A stretch of 64,000 bases of DNA from Cenarchaeum sp. (GCA_965242695.1 CBDESU010000001.1:1728001-1792000); one strand, 5' to 3'. Shown: positions 10,917 to 17,927, counted from the first letter of the stretch. The notes: generated from the sequence alone by a model not told the origin. Made by a program: numbers and translations.

Positions 10917-12137
10917 GTGAGCAGGCAGGCCCTACTCAGGTCTGATCTTGTCGACGGCCACCTGTCGGCCGCGGCGGCCGGCGGGAGGAGGCGGCCGCCG
11001 GGCGCCGCCGAGGGCGCCCGCATCCTCGATGCAGTAATGTCCGACGGGGACGCGCTGCGCCTGCTCCTGCGCGCCGCGCTCGCCGTGCGCGGGCGCGAGT
11101 GCGCCAGGCCCGGGATCGTCACATTCTCGAAAAAGGCCTTCTTCAACGTCGTCAACCTGTGCAGGGACGTCTGCACGTACTGCACGTACAGGTCAGAGCC
11201 GGCCGAGGCGGCGGCCGTCATGATGTCGCGGCGCGACGTGAAGGCGCTCGGAGAGGCCGCCGCCCGGCTCAACTGCGTCGAGGCGCTCCTTGTAGCCGGC
11301 GAGAGGCCCGAGGAGCGGTACGGTGCGGCCCGCAGGTGGCTTGCGGAAGAGGGATACGCCAGCACGGCCGAGTACCTAGTGCACTGCTCGGAGATGCTGC
11401 TCGGCATGGGCCTGTTCCCGCATACGAACGCCGGCAACCTGACAAGGGCAGAGATGGCAGACCTGTCGGCGACGAACGCGAGCATCGGGCTCATGCTAGA
11501 GACGTCGAGCGCCCGCCTAGGAGGGGCGGGCATGCCGCATGCCGGCGCGCCGAGCAAGGAGCCGGCCGCAAGGCTGGCCGCGCTGGCCGACGCCGGCTCG
11601 CTCGGCATCCCGACGACGACGGGCGTGCTAGTCGGCATCGGCGAGACGCATGCCGAGCTCGCCGAGTCGCTCGCCGCCATCGCCGCCCTGCACGGACGGT
11701 ACGGGCACGTGCAGGAGGTCATTGTCCAGGGCTTCCGGCCAAAGCCGGACACGGCCATGAGGGGCGCGCCGGCGGCCGGCGACGCGTACCTGGCCGCCTC
11801 GGCCGCTCTGGCCCGCCTCATGATGCCTGGCGCCAACATACAGGTGCCGCCAAACCTCTCGCCCGGCTCGTACCAGGACATGCTCGGCGCCGGGATCAAC
11901 GACTGGGGCGGCATATCGCCGCTCACGCCAGACCACGTAAACCCCGAGTTTTCGTGGCCGGCCATACGGCAGGTCGGAGCGCGGACGGCCCGCGCCGGCA
12001 TGCGGCTCGCCTGCAGGTTCCCCGTGTACCCCGAGTTTGTCGGGGCGGTGCGGCGCGGCATCAGGGACAGGATGGCAGGGATCGCCGAGGGCGGCGGAGC
12101 GTGGCTCGTCAGGGAGGAGTACTGGCGTGGCCCGTGA
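10917..12137 (+). CDS. cofG: FO synthase subunit 1 (radical SAM)
   Basis: TFSKKAFFNVVNLCRDVCTYCTY, QEVIVQ, IQVPPNL, GINDWGGISPLTPDHVNPE. Confidence 0.95.
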   Translation: MSRQALLRSDLVDGHLSAAAAGGRRRPPGAAEGARILDAVMSDGDALRLLLRAALAVRGRECARPGIVTFSKKAFFNVVNLCRDVCTYCTYRSEPAEAAAVMMSRRDVKALGEAAARLNCVEALLVAGERPEERYGAARRWLAEEGYASTAEYLVHCSEMLLGMGLFPHTNAGNLTRAEMADLSATNASIGLMLETSSARLGGAGMPHAGAPSKEPAARLAALADAGSLGIPTTTGVLVGIGETHAELAESLAAIAALHGRYGHVQEVIVQGFRPKPDTAMRGAPAAGDAYLAASAALARLMMPGANIQVPPNLSPGSYQDMLGAGINDWGGISPLTPDHVNPEFSWPAIRQVGARTARAGMRLACRFPVYPEFVGAVRRGIRDRMAGIAEGGGAWLVREEYWRGP

Positions 12138-13473
12138 GTTTCCCGAGCCGGCCCTGAGGGGGGCCGACCCCATAGTGGCAGGCCACCTCGACAGGGCCCT
12201 GTCCGGCCGCGAGGTCTCGGCCGAGGGGGGCGAGGCCCTGCTGGCCGCCCGCGGCGGCGATGCGCACCTAGTCGGGGCCGCCGCGGACGCGCTGCGCGAG
12301 CGCGAGTGCGGCGATGCGGCCACGTACGTCGTCAACCGCAACATCAACTTTACGAACGTGTGCATAAAGCAGTGCGGGTTCTGCGCGTTCAGCCGCGACT
12401 TTCGCGGCAGCCAAGAGGCGTACATGCTGCCCGTCGGAGAGGTCGTCAGGAGGGCCGCCGAGGCGCGCGAGATGGGCGCGACCGAGGTGTGCATACAGGC
12501 GGGCCTGCCGCCGGACATGGACGGGTCGGCCTACGAGGAGATGGTGCGCGCCGTAAAGGGCGCCGTGCCCGGCATCCACGTGCACGCATTCTCGCCCGAA
12601 GAGGTCGCGTACGGGGCGGCCCGGGCCGGCGCGACCGTGCAAGAGTACCTTGCACGGCTCAGGGAGGCCGGCGTGGACACCCTGCCCGGAACGTCTGCCG
12701 AGATACTCGACCAGGCCGTGCGCGACCGCATATCACCGGGGCGCATCACCGTGCGCGACTGGGTCACCGTCGTGACCGAGGCGCACCGCCTCGGCATCCG
12801 AACCACGTCCACGATGATGTTCGGCCATGTGGAGTCGCTCGGGGACAGGGCAAGGCATATGGCCCTGCTGCGCTCCATCCAGCGGCGAACGGGCGGGTTT
12901 ACAGAGTTTGTCCCGCTCAGGTTCATAGCCGACGAGGCCCCGATGACGAGGGGAGGGGACGGCCCCCTGTCGGGCGCCGTGGAAGAGGCATCCGAGGGCG
13001 GTGCGCTCGACACGCTGCTCACGCATGCGGTAGCCAGGATAATGCTGGGCGGGGCGCTGCGCAACGTGCAGGCGTCGTGGGTCAAGGAGGGGCCTGCCAT
13101 GGCGCAGCTGCTCCTCGCGTGGGGCGCCAACGACCTGGGCGGGACGCTCATCAATGAGAGCATCTCGACGTCGGCCGGCGCGGGCCACGGCCAGCTCCTC
13201 AGGCCGCGCGAGATCAGGGCCCTTGCAGGCGGCGCCGGCAGGACGCCGCTAGAGCGCACGACCCTGTACGGGGAGGCTGCGGCCCGGCGGGACGAGGCTG
13301 GGCCGCCCGCGGGCGGGGCCGCCCTTGGGACAGGGTCGGAGGCCGCCCCGCCCCTCGATGCGGTCGACGACCCGGCCAGGTTTGGGTCGTACTTTGAGCT
13401 GATCAAGATAGGCTCGTTCCGGTACAGGAACACGCGCAGGCAGAGGGCGCCGCCGGCGGCTCCTCGTCCATAG
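12127..13473 (+). CDS. cofH: FO synthase subunit 2 (radical SAM)
   Basis: YVVNRNINFTNVCIKQCGFCAF, PGTSAEIL, TTSTMMFGH, NVQASWVK, GANDLGGTLINESI. Confidence 0.95.
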   Translation: MAREFPEPALRGADPIVAGHLDRALSGREVSAEGGEALLAARGGDAHLVGAAADALRERECGDAATYVVNRNINFTNVCIKQCGFCAFSRDFRGSQEAYMLPVGEVVRRAAEAREMGATEVCIQAGLPPDMDGSAYEEMVRAVKGAVPGIHVHAFSPEEVAYGAARAGATVQEYLARLREAGVDTLPGTSAEILDQAVRDRISPGRITVRDWVTVVTEAHRLGIRTTSTMMFGHVESLGDRARHMALLRSIQRRTGGFTEFVPLRFIADEAPMTRGGDGPLSGAVEEASEGGALDTLLTHAVARIMLGGALRNVQASWVKEGPAMAQLLLAWGANDLGGTLINESISTSAGAGHGQLLRPREIRALAGGAGRTPLERTTLYGEAAARRDEAGPPAGGAALGTGSEAAPPLDAVDDPARFGSYFELIKIGSFRYRNTRRQRAPPAAPRP

Positions 13474-13664
13474 CCCAGCAGGCTCTTGCACCCCCACCAT
13501 CCCGCCCCATGCCCTGCGCGCCCAGGCTAGCGCCTGCACAAGCCGGCCCGGCAGGGCAGAGCCCAAAGGGGCAATGGCATGCCTGCCTGACGACGCGGCA
13601 GGACGGCCCTACCACACGCAGTCAGACACTGCACGTTTATATCCCCCACAGAATCAGGCCTTGC

Positions 13665-13829
13665 ATGGTAGTACCCAGATATCCCAAGCCCCTCAGCACA
13701 GAGGCGTGGGAGGCGCTGATTGCAGGGCTGGAAAAGGGCCAGACCGAGGAGCAGAGGAAAATGGTGGAGGAGGCAAAGAGAACCATTCACAACCTGCCGT
13801 GGTCTACGAGCAAAGATCGGCAGGTGTAA
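13665..13829 (+). CDS. 54-aa putative antitoxin, copy 1
   Basis: MVVPRYPKPLSTEAWEALIAGLEKGQTEEQRKMVEEAKR...; tttatat box ~25 nt upstream; paralog at 16637; lies upstream of a GNAT gene. Confidence 0.7.
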   Translation: MVVPRYPKPLSTEAWEALIAGLEKGQTEEQRKMVEEAKRTIHNLPWSTSKDRQV

Positions 13830-14077
13830 CGATGCTCAACATGCCATACATGGTGGTCGTCTTGGCGAGGACGGCACAGGAACACTCCACCTTGATGCTA
13901 GGGCATAAGAACGTGCCCGTCAGGAGCACAGGGTCGGATGCCGGCGTAGCCGACGAGTTCGGGGCGTAGCACCATGGGCGCCGGCGACATAGATGTGACA
14001 GAGCTGTCTTTGTCGCTACTCGACGAGCTTGACGACAGGGGAGGCTTTGTTTGCAGAAACCCAGAGTTTGCAGACTA

Positions 14078-15640
14078 TAGGGGTTCTATTTGAGTTCACG
14101 AAAACGTATTGAAGATTGCATGCAATTACGGGCGAAAAAAGTCACAGAAAACAGTTACACAAAATAGTTACACAAAACAATTGTATCGTGAATTGTTATT
14201 CCGCAGCGCGGCACAAGTGCAACATTTATCGCAGGCGGGGCATGCCACTTTATTCCTCAAGCAATATCTGGGGAAGCCTCGCAAGAAAGTTGGCGGGAAT
14301 GTTCGAGTTGGCCAGCACAGGGGGCAACTTTGCGCGCTTTTCCGGAGGGAGTATCTTGTCCTCCTTCGCTTGAATCTCTTCGATGGTCGGCAGGGGGATC
14401 TCCTCTTCCGGCATTCTCCTCTGCACGTACGCAAAGTGCTCTCCCGGCCTGAGCCTTTTCTTGATCCCCGCCGCCTTGCGGGGGCTGATCTGCGGCGCGT
14501 CGACCGCAGTCGCATAGTCGTAGAACTCGACCGGGACGATTAGGTCGCTCTCAAAGCACCACCCGAGCTCGCCGCTTATGGCCCCGACGCTGTCGAGCCC
14601 TACGTTGGACATGGCGGTCTTTATGCCGCGGATCTGCGGCTCGGCGACGTTGTCGTTGGGCGTGTACGGAAGCGTGGGTATGCGCCTCAGGCGGTCCGCG
14701 TTGTCCCGGATGTGGTCGCTGGACCTGTCCGAGGTGTGGTACCCGGCGTTGTCGTCTATGGTCTGAATCTTGCCGACTAGGGCGCTGACCCTGTCAAGGA
14801 ACCTCATGTACGCCTCGCTGTTGGCCCGGCCGGGGCACTCCATGACGAAGACCCACCCGTAGCCGACGGCTACGAAGAAGCTCAGGCGTGCGCGCCCGAC
14901 GCTCGACGTGCGCACGATCTCGACCCCTCTCAGCCCCGCCGTCTCGCGCCCGTTCTTGTAGCCCTGCGCATGGCCCTCGTCGATGAAGACCGTATGGTAG
15001 CCGGCCGCGGCGGCCTCCTTGATCTTAGCGCGCGCCTCCGCCTGGAAGGCGAGCCGCTCCTCGAGGCTCGCCGCCTTTGGGTGTGCGGGGCGGGGCACCT
15101 TGAGCCGTATGCCCATCTCCTTGAAGTTCTTTGCGGCCGTCGAGTATGCTATCTTCACCTTGTACTTTTTCTCAAGATGGTCGTGCAGGAGTTTGAACGT
15201 CCACACGTTGGCCTTGTAGCCGGCCGCCTGTGGCCCCATGAAGACATCCATGATCAACTCCCAGCGGATCTCGAGTGGAATTGATCGGCGCCTGCCGGGG
15301 CTCTTGCCCCGCGGGGCCGCCTTCAGGCCCCCCTTGTGCATCTTCACCAGCCAGTCCCTGACCGCGTCGTACGATGCAAGGACCATCCCGGCTATCTCGT
15401 TGAACGACCTGCCCTTCTTGCGGTGGTACGCGGCCATGTACCTCTTGGCCGTCAGCGCGTCCATCTCCTTGTTGGCAAGGCGCTTGAGCTTGTGGGCGCT
15501 CGTGCCAGGCATGAAGCCCTTGCCCTCTGGAATCGATCCCTTTCGCCCCATGCCCTACCCTGTCGTCCCTGCTATACCACCACAGTGGTGAAGGGATCTT
15601 GACACCTGGTCAATTCTTGTCAACTTTAGTAGAGCCCCTA
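14078..15640 (-). mobile_element. IS630/Tc1-family insertion sequence, 1563 bp, TA target duplication
   Basis: Terminal inverted repeats taggggttctatttgagtt / taggggctctactaaagtt (15/19); TA at 14076-77 and 15641-42; empty site gacTAcctcgagg seen in the paralog at ~17039-17051. Confidence 0.95.
14250..15551 (-). CDS. IS630-family transposase
   Basis: N-terminal HTH, WT...L, VPRPAHPKA, FIDEG, DDNAGYH, LPYTPNDNVAE (DDE triad). Confidence 0.93.
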   Translation of the reverse strand: MGRKGSIPEGKGFMPGTSAHKLKRLANKEMDALTAKRYMAAYHRKKGRSFNEIAGMVLASYDAVRDWLVKMHKGGLKAAPRGKSPGRRRSIPLEIRWELIMDVFMGPQAAGYKANVWTFKLLHDHLEKKYKVKIAYSTAAKNFKEMGIRLKVPRPAHPKAASLEERLAFQAEARAKIKEAAAAGYHTVFIDEGHAQGYKNGRETAGLRGVEIVRTSSVGRARLSFFVAVGYGWVFVMECPGRANSEAYMRFLDRVSALVGKIQTIDDNAGYHTSDRSSDHIRDNADRLRRIPTLPYTPNDNVAEPQIRGIKTAMSNVGLDSVGAISGELGWCFESDLIVPVEFYDYATAVDAPQISPRKAAGIKKRLRPGEHFAYVQRRMPEEEIPLPTIEEIQAKEDKILPPEKRAKLPPVLANSNIPANFLARLPQILLEE

Positions 15641-16054
15641 TACCTCGAGGTGAATGCCGCATACGATATGAAGGTGCAAATGGGACTAACCTACCTAGCA
15701 CGGTACAACAAGCAGGTTGTGGGGTTCATGACGCTAGCAATGGCGCACCTAGACAAGGCTGAGCAACAGACGCTTGGCATAGACGCATACGGAAACATAC
15801 TCGTACTGGCCGTAACGGCCTTGGCCACAGACAAGCGCTACGAGCGGCGCGGAGTTGGCCGATATATGGTGAACAGCGACATACTGCTTGCGTTAGACAT
15901 GTCAAGACGGGTTGCGTGCAGAGCCATATACCTAAACGCCGACCCCGACGCCATGGGATTTTACAAAAAACTTAACTTCGAACCGCTGCCTCACTCACCA
16001 GACACAGATGGGGCGCCCATGTACTTTGACCTTGTCCCGTCTGCGTGACGACCC

Positions 16055-16395
16055 TGGCCAGACACACGGCAGGCCGCCGCGCGGACGGCCCGCGCAGGCA
16101 TGCGGCTCGCCTGCAGGTTTCCCGCGTACTTCGAGTTTGCCGGGACAGTGCGGCGCGACATCAGGGACAGGATGGGGACGATTAGCGAGGACGGTGGATC
16201 GTGGTTCGTGGAGGAAGTACTGGCATGGGACGTGAGTTTCTCAAGGCGGCTCTGTGAAGGGCAGAACCCGTAGTGGCCTGCCACCCCGACAGGCCCCGTC
16301 CCGCCGCGAGGCCTCCGCCGCCGAACATGGGTGGCTCGTTCCGGTACCGGAACGCACGCAGGCAGGGGGCGCCGCCGAATGCGGCTCGGTCGTAA
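16055..16395 (+). pseudogene. Decayed duplicate of the cofG 3' end/cofH 5' start fused to the cofH 3' end
   Basis: 16055-16324 resembles 11955-12224; 16333-16395 resembles 13411-13473. Confidence 0.85.
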
Positions 16396-16636
16396 CACGG
16401 CAGGCGCTTGCGCCGGGCGGTGGCCCCAGCCCTGGCCGTGCTGGAATGAGACTAGGCCGAACCCGGCATGCGCTTGCACCTCCCGCCCTACTTCCCGCGC
16501 ATCCCGACTGCCTGCCTGCGCAGCCCGGCGCGGTGAAGCGGGATCATAGATCTGGAGTAGTCGCCACCCACAGGCTGGCACACCCGTGCGGTATGCGATC
16601 GGACAGATTATATACGGTTCCGAAATCCTGCCTTGC

Positions 16637-16801
16637 ATGGTGGTACCCATATACCCAAAGCCGCTCAGCGCCAAGGCATGGAAAGTGCTGATCGCCGAGC
16701 TGGAAAAGGGCCAGTCAGAGGACCAGAAGAAGGCGATGGAGGAGGCAAGAAGGACCATTCGCAACTCGCCGTGGTCCGCTGGCAAGGATCGGCAGGTGTG
16801 A
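16637..16801 (+). CDS. 54-aa putative antitoxin, copy 2
   Basis: MVVPIYPKPLSAKAWKVLIAELEKGQSEDQKKAMEEARRTIRNSPWSAGKDRQV; ttatata box upstream. Confidence 0.7.
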   Translation: MVVPIYPKPLSAKAWKVLIAELEKGQSEDQKKAMEEARRTIRNSPWSAGKDRQV

Positions 16802-16943
16802 CGACTGGCCCACATGCCACACATGTCGGTCTTTTCGGCGTGAACGGTACGAGGGAACTCCGGCCCAGGGTTCGTGCACAGGATCGTGCCGGCCAGATGT
16901 GCATTGTGGGATGATGCAGTCGACATGTGCGAGGTGTAATGGC

Positions 16944-17449
16944 ATGGGTGCCAACGACATAGATGTGGCAGAGTTGTCCTTATCGCTACTCGACGAGCTT
17001 GACGACAGGGGAGGCTTTGCAGAAATCCAGAGTTTACAGACTACCTCGAGGTAGGCGCCGCATACGATATGAAAGTACGAATGGTGCTCACCTACTTAGC
17101 GCGGCACAACAAGCAAGTTGTGGGGTTCATGACGCTGGCAATGGCCCACCTGAACAGGTCTGAACAACCGACGTTTGGCATAGACACGTATGGGAACATA
17201 CCCGTGCTGGCCATAACAGCCCTAGCCACCGACAGCCGTTACGAGCGGCGTGGTGTTGGTCGGCATATGGTGAACAATGCCATGCTGATGGCGGCAGACA
17301 TTTCAAAACAGGTGGCGTGCAGGGCAGTCTACTTGAATTCACACCCCGACGCGGTAGGATTCTACAGAAAGCTAAAGTTCAAGACGCTGCCCTACTCGCC
17401 AAGCGTTAGCGAGCCACCTATGTACTTTGACCTTGTCGAAACCACGTGA
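16944..17449 (+). pseudogene. GNAT acetyltransferase, copy 2, frameshifted by a 4-bp deletion near 17016
   Basis: ggctttgcagaa versus ggctttgtttgcagaa in copy 1; the downstream frame (17069-17449) carries the GNAT core. Confidence 0.8.
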
Positions 17450-17757
17450 CAACTACATAACCGCAAAATGGTCACCAAGATGTGCGAGTGGCAAGTGCGC
17501 CGCACGCCTAACGCGTTGCAGCACATGCGCAATGATGGTGCGGGCGAGAATTCGCCAAGGGCTTACGACCGCCGCATATTCCAAGAAGATTCATACCACC
17601 ACCGCCCCCATCCCCTCCCAATCGGTGGCCCGCCCCACCCCCTCCCGCTTTCTGCCAAACAGGAAAGCGCATGAGGGTCCCAATCCACGAGCAGGTCGGA
17701 AGCATGCTGCATGCCCATGCCGTGTCACGGACAGGTGTCGCGCAGCGAGCAGGCGGA

Positions 17758-17927
17758 GTCGCAAGATCCTACAGCATCGCGCCACTCTAGCCGCCCCATG
17801 ACGATAAGCCCTTGTCCGAAGTGAACAGACGTCCGCACCTGCAGCGTCGCGCCATCTTGGCAACACCGTCACTCATTACGAACGGGGGCGTTATCGGACG
17901 TCCGCACCTGCAGCGTCGCGCCATCTT
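17758..17927. repeat. Mini repeat-spacer array: 31-bp repeat x2 exact plus one degenerate copy, 38-39-bp spacers
   Basis: gacgtccgcacctgcagcgtcgcgccatctt at 17828 and 17897; degenerate copy at 17758. Confidence 0.75.

Follow-up and report, generated by a model that had tools for sequence, protein, structure and literature searches.

Tandem copies of a toxin-antitoxin-like module with broken GNAT genes and open DUF1778-like small partners in an ammonia-oxidising archaeon

The stretch of DNA analysed here (the window; G000:C1:1728001-1792000, 64,000 nt) lies in the 3.89 Mb genome (68% GC) of a Cenarchaeum sp. Between positions 13635 and 17449 it contains two units of identical build, each composed of an AT-rich 8-mer, an open reading frame (ORF) for a small protein of 54 amino acids (aa), a spacer and a gene for a GNAT acetyltransferase, the latter being broken in both units (Table 1). 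The genome contains a full-length match to archaeal small-subunit (SSU) rRNA and an archaeal AmoA with an expectation value (E) of 2e-118, the AmoA model matching none of 14 control genomes; the host is therefore an ammonia-oxidising archaeon. An earlier note on this DNA, made from the sequence alone, had guessed at this type of host and had described two copies of a TATA box, a 54-aa ORF, a gap of about 143 bp and a GNAT gene, with both small ORFs intact. The SSU rRNA and AmoA bear out the guess, and both units were located as described, with open small ORFs and spacers of 144 and 142 nt.

Table 1 Features of the two tandem units and of the neighbouring cofH-like gene, in window coordinates
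Feature	Position	Strand	Remarks
cofH-like radical SAM gene	12037..13473	+	Pfam Radical_SAM, CofH_C; both gene ends belong to the duplicated unit
TATA-like box of unit 1, GTTTATAT	13635..13642	+	starts 30 nt before ATG
Small ORF1, 54 aa, candidate antitoxin without DNA-binding domain	13665..13829	+	
Spacer of unit 1, 144 nt	13830..13973	+	61% identity with spacer of unit 2
GNAT1 5' piece, 35 codons	13974..14078	+	97% identity to P0083 residues 1-35
IS630-like element, 1563 nt plus one copy of the TA duplication	14076..15640	-	DDE_3, HTH_33/32/29
IS630-like transposase	14250-15551	-	433 aa
GNAT1 3' piece, 135 codons plus stop	15641..16048	+	Acetyltransf_7, Acetyltransf_1; 96% identity to P0083
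Second cofH copy, remnant, interior deleted	16055..16414	+	blastn 81% and 79%
TATA-like box of unit 2, ATTATATA	16607..16614	+	starts 30 nt before ATG
Small ORF2, 54 aa	16637..16801	+	open; 70% identity to small ORF1
GNAT2 5' piece, up to the 4-nt loss	16944..17018	+	
GNAT2 3' piece	17018..17449	+	-1 frame relative to 5' piece; Acetyltransf_1, Acetyltransf_7; 92% identity to P0081

DNA identity between the two units is 79-83% in the ORFs and 61% in the spacers (about 80% overall). Between unit 1 and unit 2, the small ORF has a ratio of nonsynonymous to synonymous substitution rates (dN/dS) of 0.21 at a dS of 0.71, and the GNAT gene one of 0.19-0.20 at dS values of 0.27 and 0.86; both genes were hence constrained over most of the period following the divergence of the units. 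With the ORF homology and the low dN/dS, chance similarity between the units is excluded.

The GNAT gene has kept recognizable Pfam GNAT domains in both 3' pieces, and the two pieces of GNAT1 together align end to end with P0083, an intact homologue of 169 aa from a metagenome. A phmmer search with P0083 against 1.84 billion representative sequences returned 1729 proteins at E<=1e-3, 147 of them at E<=1e-10. NCBIfam and PADLOC yielded nothing specific for the GNAT, the NCBIfam matches being weak and generic. In a single-sequence search of the PDB, the best match of P0083 was entry 7byy (E 1.2e-7), an ItaT structure (PMC7367177). A profile built from 118 GNAT homologues matched AtaT (2.2e-34), KacT (1.6e-30) and TacT (1e-29) far more strongly than the best non-toxin GNAT (9e-9). 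The model of P0083 calculated with AlphaFold2 (AF2) has a predicted local distance difference test (pLDDT) value of 92.8, and with this model Foldseek placed exclusively tRNA-acetylating toxins at ranks 1-38 (template modelling score, TM, 0.74-0.84), with other GNATs following at 0.55-0.61. Toxins of the AtaT/TacT/KacT/ItaT/GmvT type acetylate the amino group of aminoacyl-tRNA, by which translation is blocked. In the GNAT model, the motif ERRGVG precedes helix 106-124. Residue Y142 of P0083, near-invariant in the 118 sequences and kept in both window copies, aligns with Y144 of AtaT, a position equivalent to Y145 of KacT. A further representative of the GNAT homologues, P0162, had tblastn matches in 2919 plasmid records, and an annotated DUF1778 gene adjoined the match in all eight loci inspected. 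By profile and by predicted fold, the nearest solved relatives of the GNAT are thus exclusively toxins of toxin-antitoxin (TA) systems, in agreement with the TacT/AtaT kind proposed in the earlier note.

The small protein belongs to a family whose 17 open copies in this genome share the core M.REVKPLS..QW..V...L..GPTPE.....E.A.E.AK.I and for which neither Pfam, NCBIfam nor PADLOC holds a model. Searching 5.8 billion proteins with the family profile yielded 80 clusters of 29-156 aa; those beyond the entries of this genome came from metagenome-type sources only, and none carried a name or a Pfam domain. An ESM Atlas look-up of one family member gave no usable match, and Foldseek with a model of the small protein returned nothing at E<=0.001. 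The one Pfam assignment obtained, Peptidase_M49 for small ORF1 (23.1 bits at a cut-off of 21; 40 residues of a 548-position model), was rejected as a chance match, being found neither in copy 2 nor in 13 paralogues. The model of the DUF1778/TacA family, PF08681, matched none of 15 family members in hmmscan at E up to 1-10 and was sought in the genome without being found; a search of the PDB with the small-family profile at E up to 10 yielded no TacA, AtaR or KacA chain, only designed helical repeat proteins.

A profile-profile comparison by hhalign, at first with 8 and later with 43 DUF1778 proteins, aligned the small family to DUF1778 with a probability of 83-88% (E 3e-6 to 1e-5) over 33-36 columns. 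The real pair scored 35.1, compared with 11-12 for reversed alignments and at most 15.2 for 60 column shuffles. The pairing was constant, residues of about 5-42 of the small protein aligning with positions 50-87 of DUF1778 only, that is, with its C-terminal half. In the AF2 model of the small protein, an extended N-terminus is followed by two helices (12-24 and 28-42) around a G(P)T(P) turn. The protein starts at the strand preceding the first helix, and the N-terminal ribbon-helix-helix is missing; since upstream of the small ORFs a stop or the TATA-like box is reached within about 40 nt, there is no space for such a domain. The likeness to the C-terminal half of DUF1778 alone, without ribbon-helix-helix, which the earlier note had read from a few conserved residues, is therefore recovered by hhalign with failing controls, and a direct match to a DUF1778 model is absent. 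According to the available part of the KacA-KacT study (PMC6698736), the toxin-binding region of KacA consists of betaB (52-56), alphaC (57-70), a PPAP linker and alphaD (75-86), an order mirrored by the strand, helix, turn and helix predicted for the small protein.

The association of both proteins was modelled by folding P0083 and small ORF1 jointly, each with its own alignment. The complex scored 0.71, the best of three controls 0.00; the mark of 0.71 is met by 116 of 157 solved complexes and by 2 of 215 mismatched pairs. The runs agreed in at least 92% of contacts, with a pLDDT of the partner of at least 79. The predicted contacts fall on GNAT beta3 (69-75), beta4, alpha3, beta5 and the C-terminus: partner residues 7-10 would touch GNAT residues 71-72, at the end of strand 59-71, and residues 37-41 would touch 112-116 in the helix past the ERRGVG loop; strands 87-97 and 129-134 and the C-terminus would be touched as well. 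In KacAT, the corresponding region of KacA binds along KacT strand beta3 and interferes with the binding of acetyl-CoA, and the archaeal partner is modelled likewise on beta3 and the acetyl-CoA side (PMC6698736, available part). Judging from the titles of PDB entries, C-terminal fragments of AtaR, TacA1, TacA3 and GmvA have been crystallised by themselves on their toxins. The model supports binding of the small protein to the GNAT, and with it the complex of GNAT and 54-aa protein that the earlier note had envisaged.

The two genes are linked well beyond the window. The genome contains 13 GNAT loci and 17 small ORFs. Directly behind 13 of the small ORFs stands a GNAT, in some cases as a remnant, and around the remaining four no trace of a GNAT was found within 2.6 kb. 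Some paralogues have overlapping or abutting small-ORF and GNAT frames. An 8-mer with at least six A/T at -42..-20 precedes 15 of 16 paralogues, compared with 14% of 20000 random genome positions, and when 15 loci with 7 kb of surroundings were compared all against all, no third gene proved conserved. Of 401 genomes in the class, 32 had the small family at E<=1e-5; these belong to a single archaeal family (31 of 223 genomes of that family; 9 of 81 by genus), and none of 177 genomes from 19 other families had it. Two genomes of the same genus (G003, G004) and one of another genus in the same family (G022) contain eight modules with the GNAT directly 3' of the small ORF, four of these GNATs being single open frames and four in pieces, and five further small-ORF loci without a GNAT within the locus. 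In loci from other genera (GC 32-58%) a GNAT lies just downstream in 8 of 9 cases, near full length in four and degraded in four. The co-occurrence on which the earlier note had made its proposal depend is thus found both here (13 of 17) and in other genera (8 of 9). Across 153 locus pairs, identities of small proteins and GNATs correlate with r 0.81, a value reached by none of 2000 permutations; this is joint inheritance and not co-evolution. A motif scan of genome contigs returned eight stretches, of which tblastn confirmed two, both inside larger unrelated proteins without an adjoining GNAT, in a contig collection that may omit near relatives.

Decay is unevenly distributed over the two genes. 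Only four of the 13 GNAT loci (a, d, e and f) are single open frames across the whole model; the nine broken ones comprise one insertion sequence (IS) insertion, one 4-nt loss, two identical frameshifts in duplicated loci and five truncated genes or remnants. None of the 17 small ORFs is broken. In a rough Poisson estimate with equal decay per base, the probability that all 17 cores would remain open is about 0.005, and about 0.06 for the nine cores beside broken GNATs. The surplus of broken toxins over broken partners fits a TA reading, if weakly.

Several of the paralogous loci have peculiarities of their own. Locus L003 (G000:C1:2079810-2081347) contains three tandem small ORFs of 88-89 aa about 640 nt apart, with a short GNAT remnant between the second and the third and an intact GNAT after the third. 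Near-identical modules with the same GNAT frameshift occur on two contigs (G000:C1:7451-8226 and G000:C2:1653888-1654663), explained by a large segmental duplication or else by redundancy in the assembly. The GNAT of paralogue f (G000:C2:1624263-1624742) is open but differs from its close paralogue e by several changes in conserved strands, e.g. L to P in IPALL, and may have been inactivated by missense changes. Within about 10 kb of G004 (G004:C1:124961-134021; L031, L039, L041 and L052), four or more small ORFs together with several broken GNATs form a local cluster of decaying modules.

The second unit of the window is accompanied by parts of the upstream neighbour. The start of the cofH-like gene together with the DNA before it (11955-12223) is repeated at 16055-16320 with 81% identity, and its end (13411-13492) at 16333-16414 with 79% identity (blastn), about 1.2 kb of the interior being missing from the second copy. 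The repetition of both gene ends therefore indicates a tandem segmental duplication that took in cofH and gave rise to unit 2; the interior of the second cofH copy was deleted later.

The two GNAT genes of the window were broken in different ways. GNAT1 is interrupted by an IS630-like element which is flanked by a TA dinucleotide duplication and has terminal inverted repeats of 29 nt (14076-14104 and 15614-15642). The element occurs in five genomic copies of 97.8-100% identity, the inserted one being 99.9% identical to another copy. With its DDE_3 transposase and helix-turn-helix, TA duplication, inverted repeats and multiple copies, it shows the traits of the IS630 family and nothing unusual; it broke GNAT1 and is not a part of the module. 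GNAT2 has lost a V codon and one further base, these 4 nt amounting to one 'tttg' unit of a tttgtttg repeat. GGFVCRNPEF is present at this site in GNAT1 and in all six intact homologues, and P0081, an intact protein of 180 aa, is 92% identical to GNAT2. In gene coordinates, the two breaks are 27 nt apart.

Contigs from four public runs (X1, X2, X6, X7) were compared with the region; X1 is possibly the sample of origin, and rare variants get dropped from contigs. One contig each in X6 and X7 joins 14075 to 15641, with ends TA..TA, and thus represents GNAT1 without the IS, while short contigs in X1 and X2 cross the left IS junction. The stretch 16990-17600 is covered without gap by contigs of X1, X2 and X6, to which the 4-nt loss is hence common. 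Since GNAT1 without the IS occurs in X6 and X7 contigs, its break is recent; the two breaks arose separately, first the 4-nt loss and then the IS insertion. The kind and place of the breaks and their independence accord with the earlier note, which had GNAT1 split by an IS630 element and GNAT2 by a tttg deletion at nearly the same spot and had taken the two losses as independent. The X7 contig with the IS-free GNAT1 and small ORF2 departs from the reference 3 nt past the stop of small ORF2, and the GNAT2 region is arranged differently in the X7 population.

Two observations concern the DNA around the genes. The GC content of both modules (13600-14400 and 15600-17600) is 48-58%, compared with 68-73% in the surrounding DNA, and that of small-family members in other genera 32-58%; the low GC fits mobile or recently acquired DNA. 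About 400 nt past GNAT2 lies a pair of 38-nt direct repeats (17821-17858 and 17890-17927, 69 nt apart, 31 nt identical), of which blastn found no further copies in the genome.

GNAT/DUF1778 systems are well known and, to our knowledge, have been studied almost solely in bacteria. Their regulation is tied to the DNA-binding half of the antitoxin. As in TacAT, AtaRT, KacAT, ItaRT and GmvAT, an antitoxin candidate is followed here by a GNAT some 170 aa long, which retains the GNAT fold and the Tyr matching AtaT Y144, and the partner aligns to the DUF1778 segment which wraps the toxin. The generic type II trait of two small, adjacent and co-oriented genes with joint inheritance is present as well. 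In contrast to the adjacent DUF1778 gene of the known systems, the partner here gives no PF08681 match and has no ribbon-helix-helix half. Further differences are the archaeal host with its putative TATA-box promoter, the spacer of 142-144 nt in the window copies, whereas other archaeal paralogues overlap or abut, and the restriction of the small family to one archaeal family in the sample searched. From sequence comparison and modelling, the pair is best explained as a variant of the GNAT/DUF1778 type II system, with a putative tRNA-acetylating GNAT and a reduced antitoxin.

Related arrangements have been reported. In the available part of their study, Ovchinnikov et al. (2022; PMC9177977) note that some GNAT homologues outside the 'true TA clade' are preceded by short ORFs that lack DNA-binding domains and were not analysed there. 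Both cases share a two-gene TA-like locus with a short upstream ORF lacking a predictable DNA-binding domain. Whereas those ORFs are described as divergent and unassigned, the family here is defined, tied to the C-terminal half of DUF1778 and modelled on its GNAT. In the DUF4065-GNAT pairs treated in the same part of that paper, the partner was swapped to an unrelated family (PMC9177977). Those pairs and the present ones have in common a GNAT toxin lineage without canonical DUF1778, but here the partner looks like a truncated original. The literature search found no paper with both 'GNAT toxin' and 'Thaumarchaeota', and a genomics paper on sponge Thaumarchaeota mentions TA systems with neither 'GNAT' nor 'acetyltransferase' (PMC7848895). 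The suggestion of an undescribed family in the earlier note thus stands insofar as the family is named in no protein source; it is limited in that short partner ORFs had already been mentioned, as the available text of PMC9177977 shows.

With the anatomy, homology, linkage, decay pattern and order of events as observed, the region probably represents two old tandem paralogues of a lineage-specific type II TA-like module composed of a GNAT toxin and a neutralising segment derived from DUF1778. The downstream gene would encode a GNAT toxin of the TacT/AtaT/KacT/ItaT type that blocks translation by acetylating aminoacyl-tRNA, and the upstream protein of 45-90 aa would be its antitoxin. Small ORF and GNAT are probably transcribed together from the TATA box ahead of the small ORF. 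According to the model, the small protein would act as the DUF1778 strand, helix, proline-rich turn and helix, wrapping the toxin and obstructing the acetyl-CoA site. With the ribbon-helix-helix half gone, neutralisation would be retained and autoregulation by the antitoxin would be absent. In this strain both GNAT genes are dead: GNAT2 was lost first, by the 4 nt, and GNAT1 thereafter, by the IS630-like element, with the small ORFs still open.

Several points weigh against this interpretation. Toxicity, rescue and binding are predictions, and the DUF1778 homology extends over 33-36 columns, with no HMMER match to DUF1778 models. TacA-TacT, AtaR-AtaT, KacA-KacT and GmvA-GmvT have been solved, so that resemblance to these structures may account for part of the complex score, and the alignments supplied for the complex model lie outside the calibration of the tool. 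The small ORFs are two to four times shorter than the GNATs and, once broken, harder to detect; one truncated small ORF is present in locus L064, and with active IS elements in the genome gene breakage is unsurprising. Moreover, GNATs with short partner ORFs may have other roles, a matter left open in the available text of Ovchinnikov et al. (PMC9177977). One such role would be that of an ordinary, non-toxic acetyltransferase with the small protein as a regulatory or stabilising subunit, in which case the broken copies would result from a general tendency of an IS-rich genome to lose multi-copy genes that it can dispense with. We consider this quite unlikely: the closest solved relatives by profile and fold are all TA toxins, the partner aligns to the neutralising half of DUF1778, its occurrence within the family is patchy (31 of 223 genomes), and a single genome holds many paralogues, some of the partners being GNAT-less, even though the superfamily is very broad, the NCBIfam matches are weak and generic, IS elements are active in the genome and roles of this kind are left open for such GNATs (PMC9177977, available part). 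A three-part system with a DNA-binding regulator encoded elsewhere, of the kind in which the antitoxin does not bind DNA on its own, would account for the missing DNA-binding domain of the small protein, yet is very improbable, as no third conserved gene was found in the 7 kb around 15 loci.

Two further questions concern the fate of the window copies. That GNAT2 is alive through a programmed -1 frameshift at the 4-nt loss is hardly credible and was rejected: a -1 shift at GGC TTT G does reach the downstream frame, and the allele is common to three runs, but the site has no slippery heptamer of the form X XXY YYZ and in all six intact homologues the additional 4 nt are present and in frame. 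The two small ORFs might instead be functionless leftovers yet to decay, and neither antitoxins nor cross-neutralisers of the four open paralogous GNATs. The cognate toxins of both are dead, the IS came in very recently (it matches another copy at 99.9% identity and is absent from X6 and X7), and such short genes are small targets for mutation. On the other hand, small ORF2 is open despite the 4-nt loss of GNAT2 being common to three runs, and 17 of 17 small ORFs are open in the genome, including the four without trace of a GNAT; the dN/dS of 0.21 mostly predates the breaks and is hence not decisive. On balance we regard the leftover explanation as rather doubtful. Possible, although still less than probable, is a more specific form of the TA-like module favoured here: the small protein would be a natural 'headless' antitoxin, DUF1778 cut down to a wrapping segment of 45 aa, and the open partners (17 versus four open GNATs) would serve as an anti-addiction pool cross-neutralising paralogous or incoming GNATs.

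If the TA-like module is real, neutralisation would be uncoupled from transcriptional autoregulation in this lineage. The modules would then be a natural experiment on the minimal antitoxin, on control without autoregulation and on the role of orphan antitoxins. They would also add an unannotated TA family to the ammonia-oxidising archaea, with partner genes that go unnamed in Pfam, NCBIfam and PADLOC.

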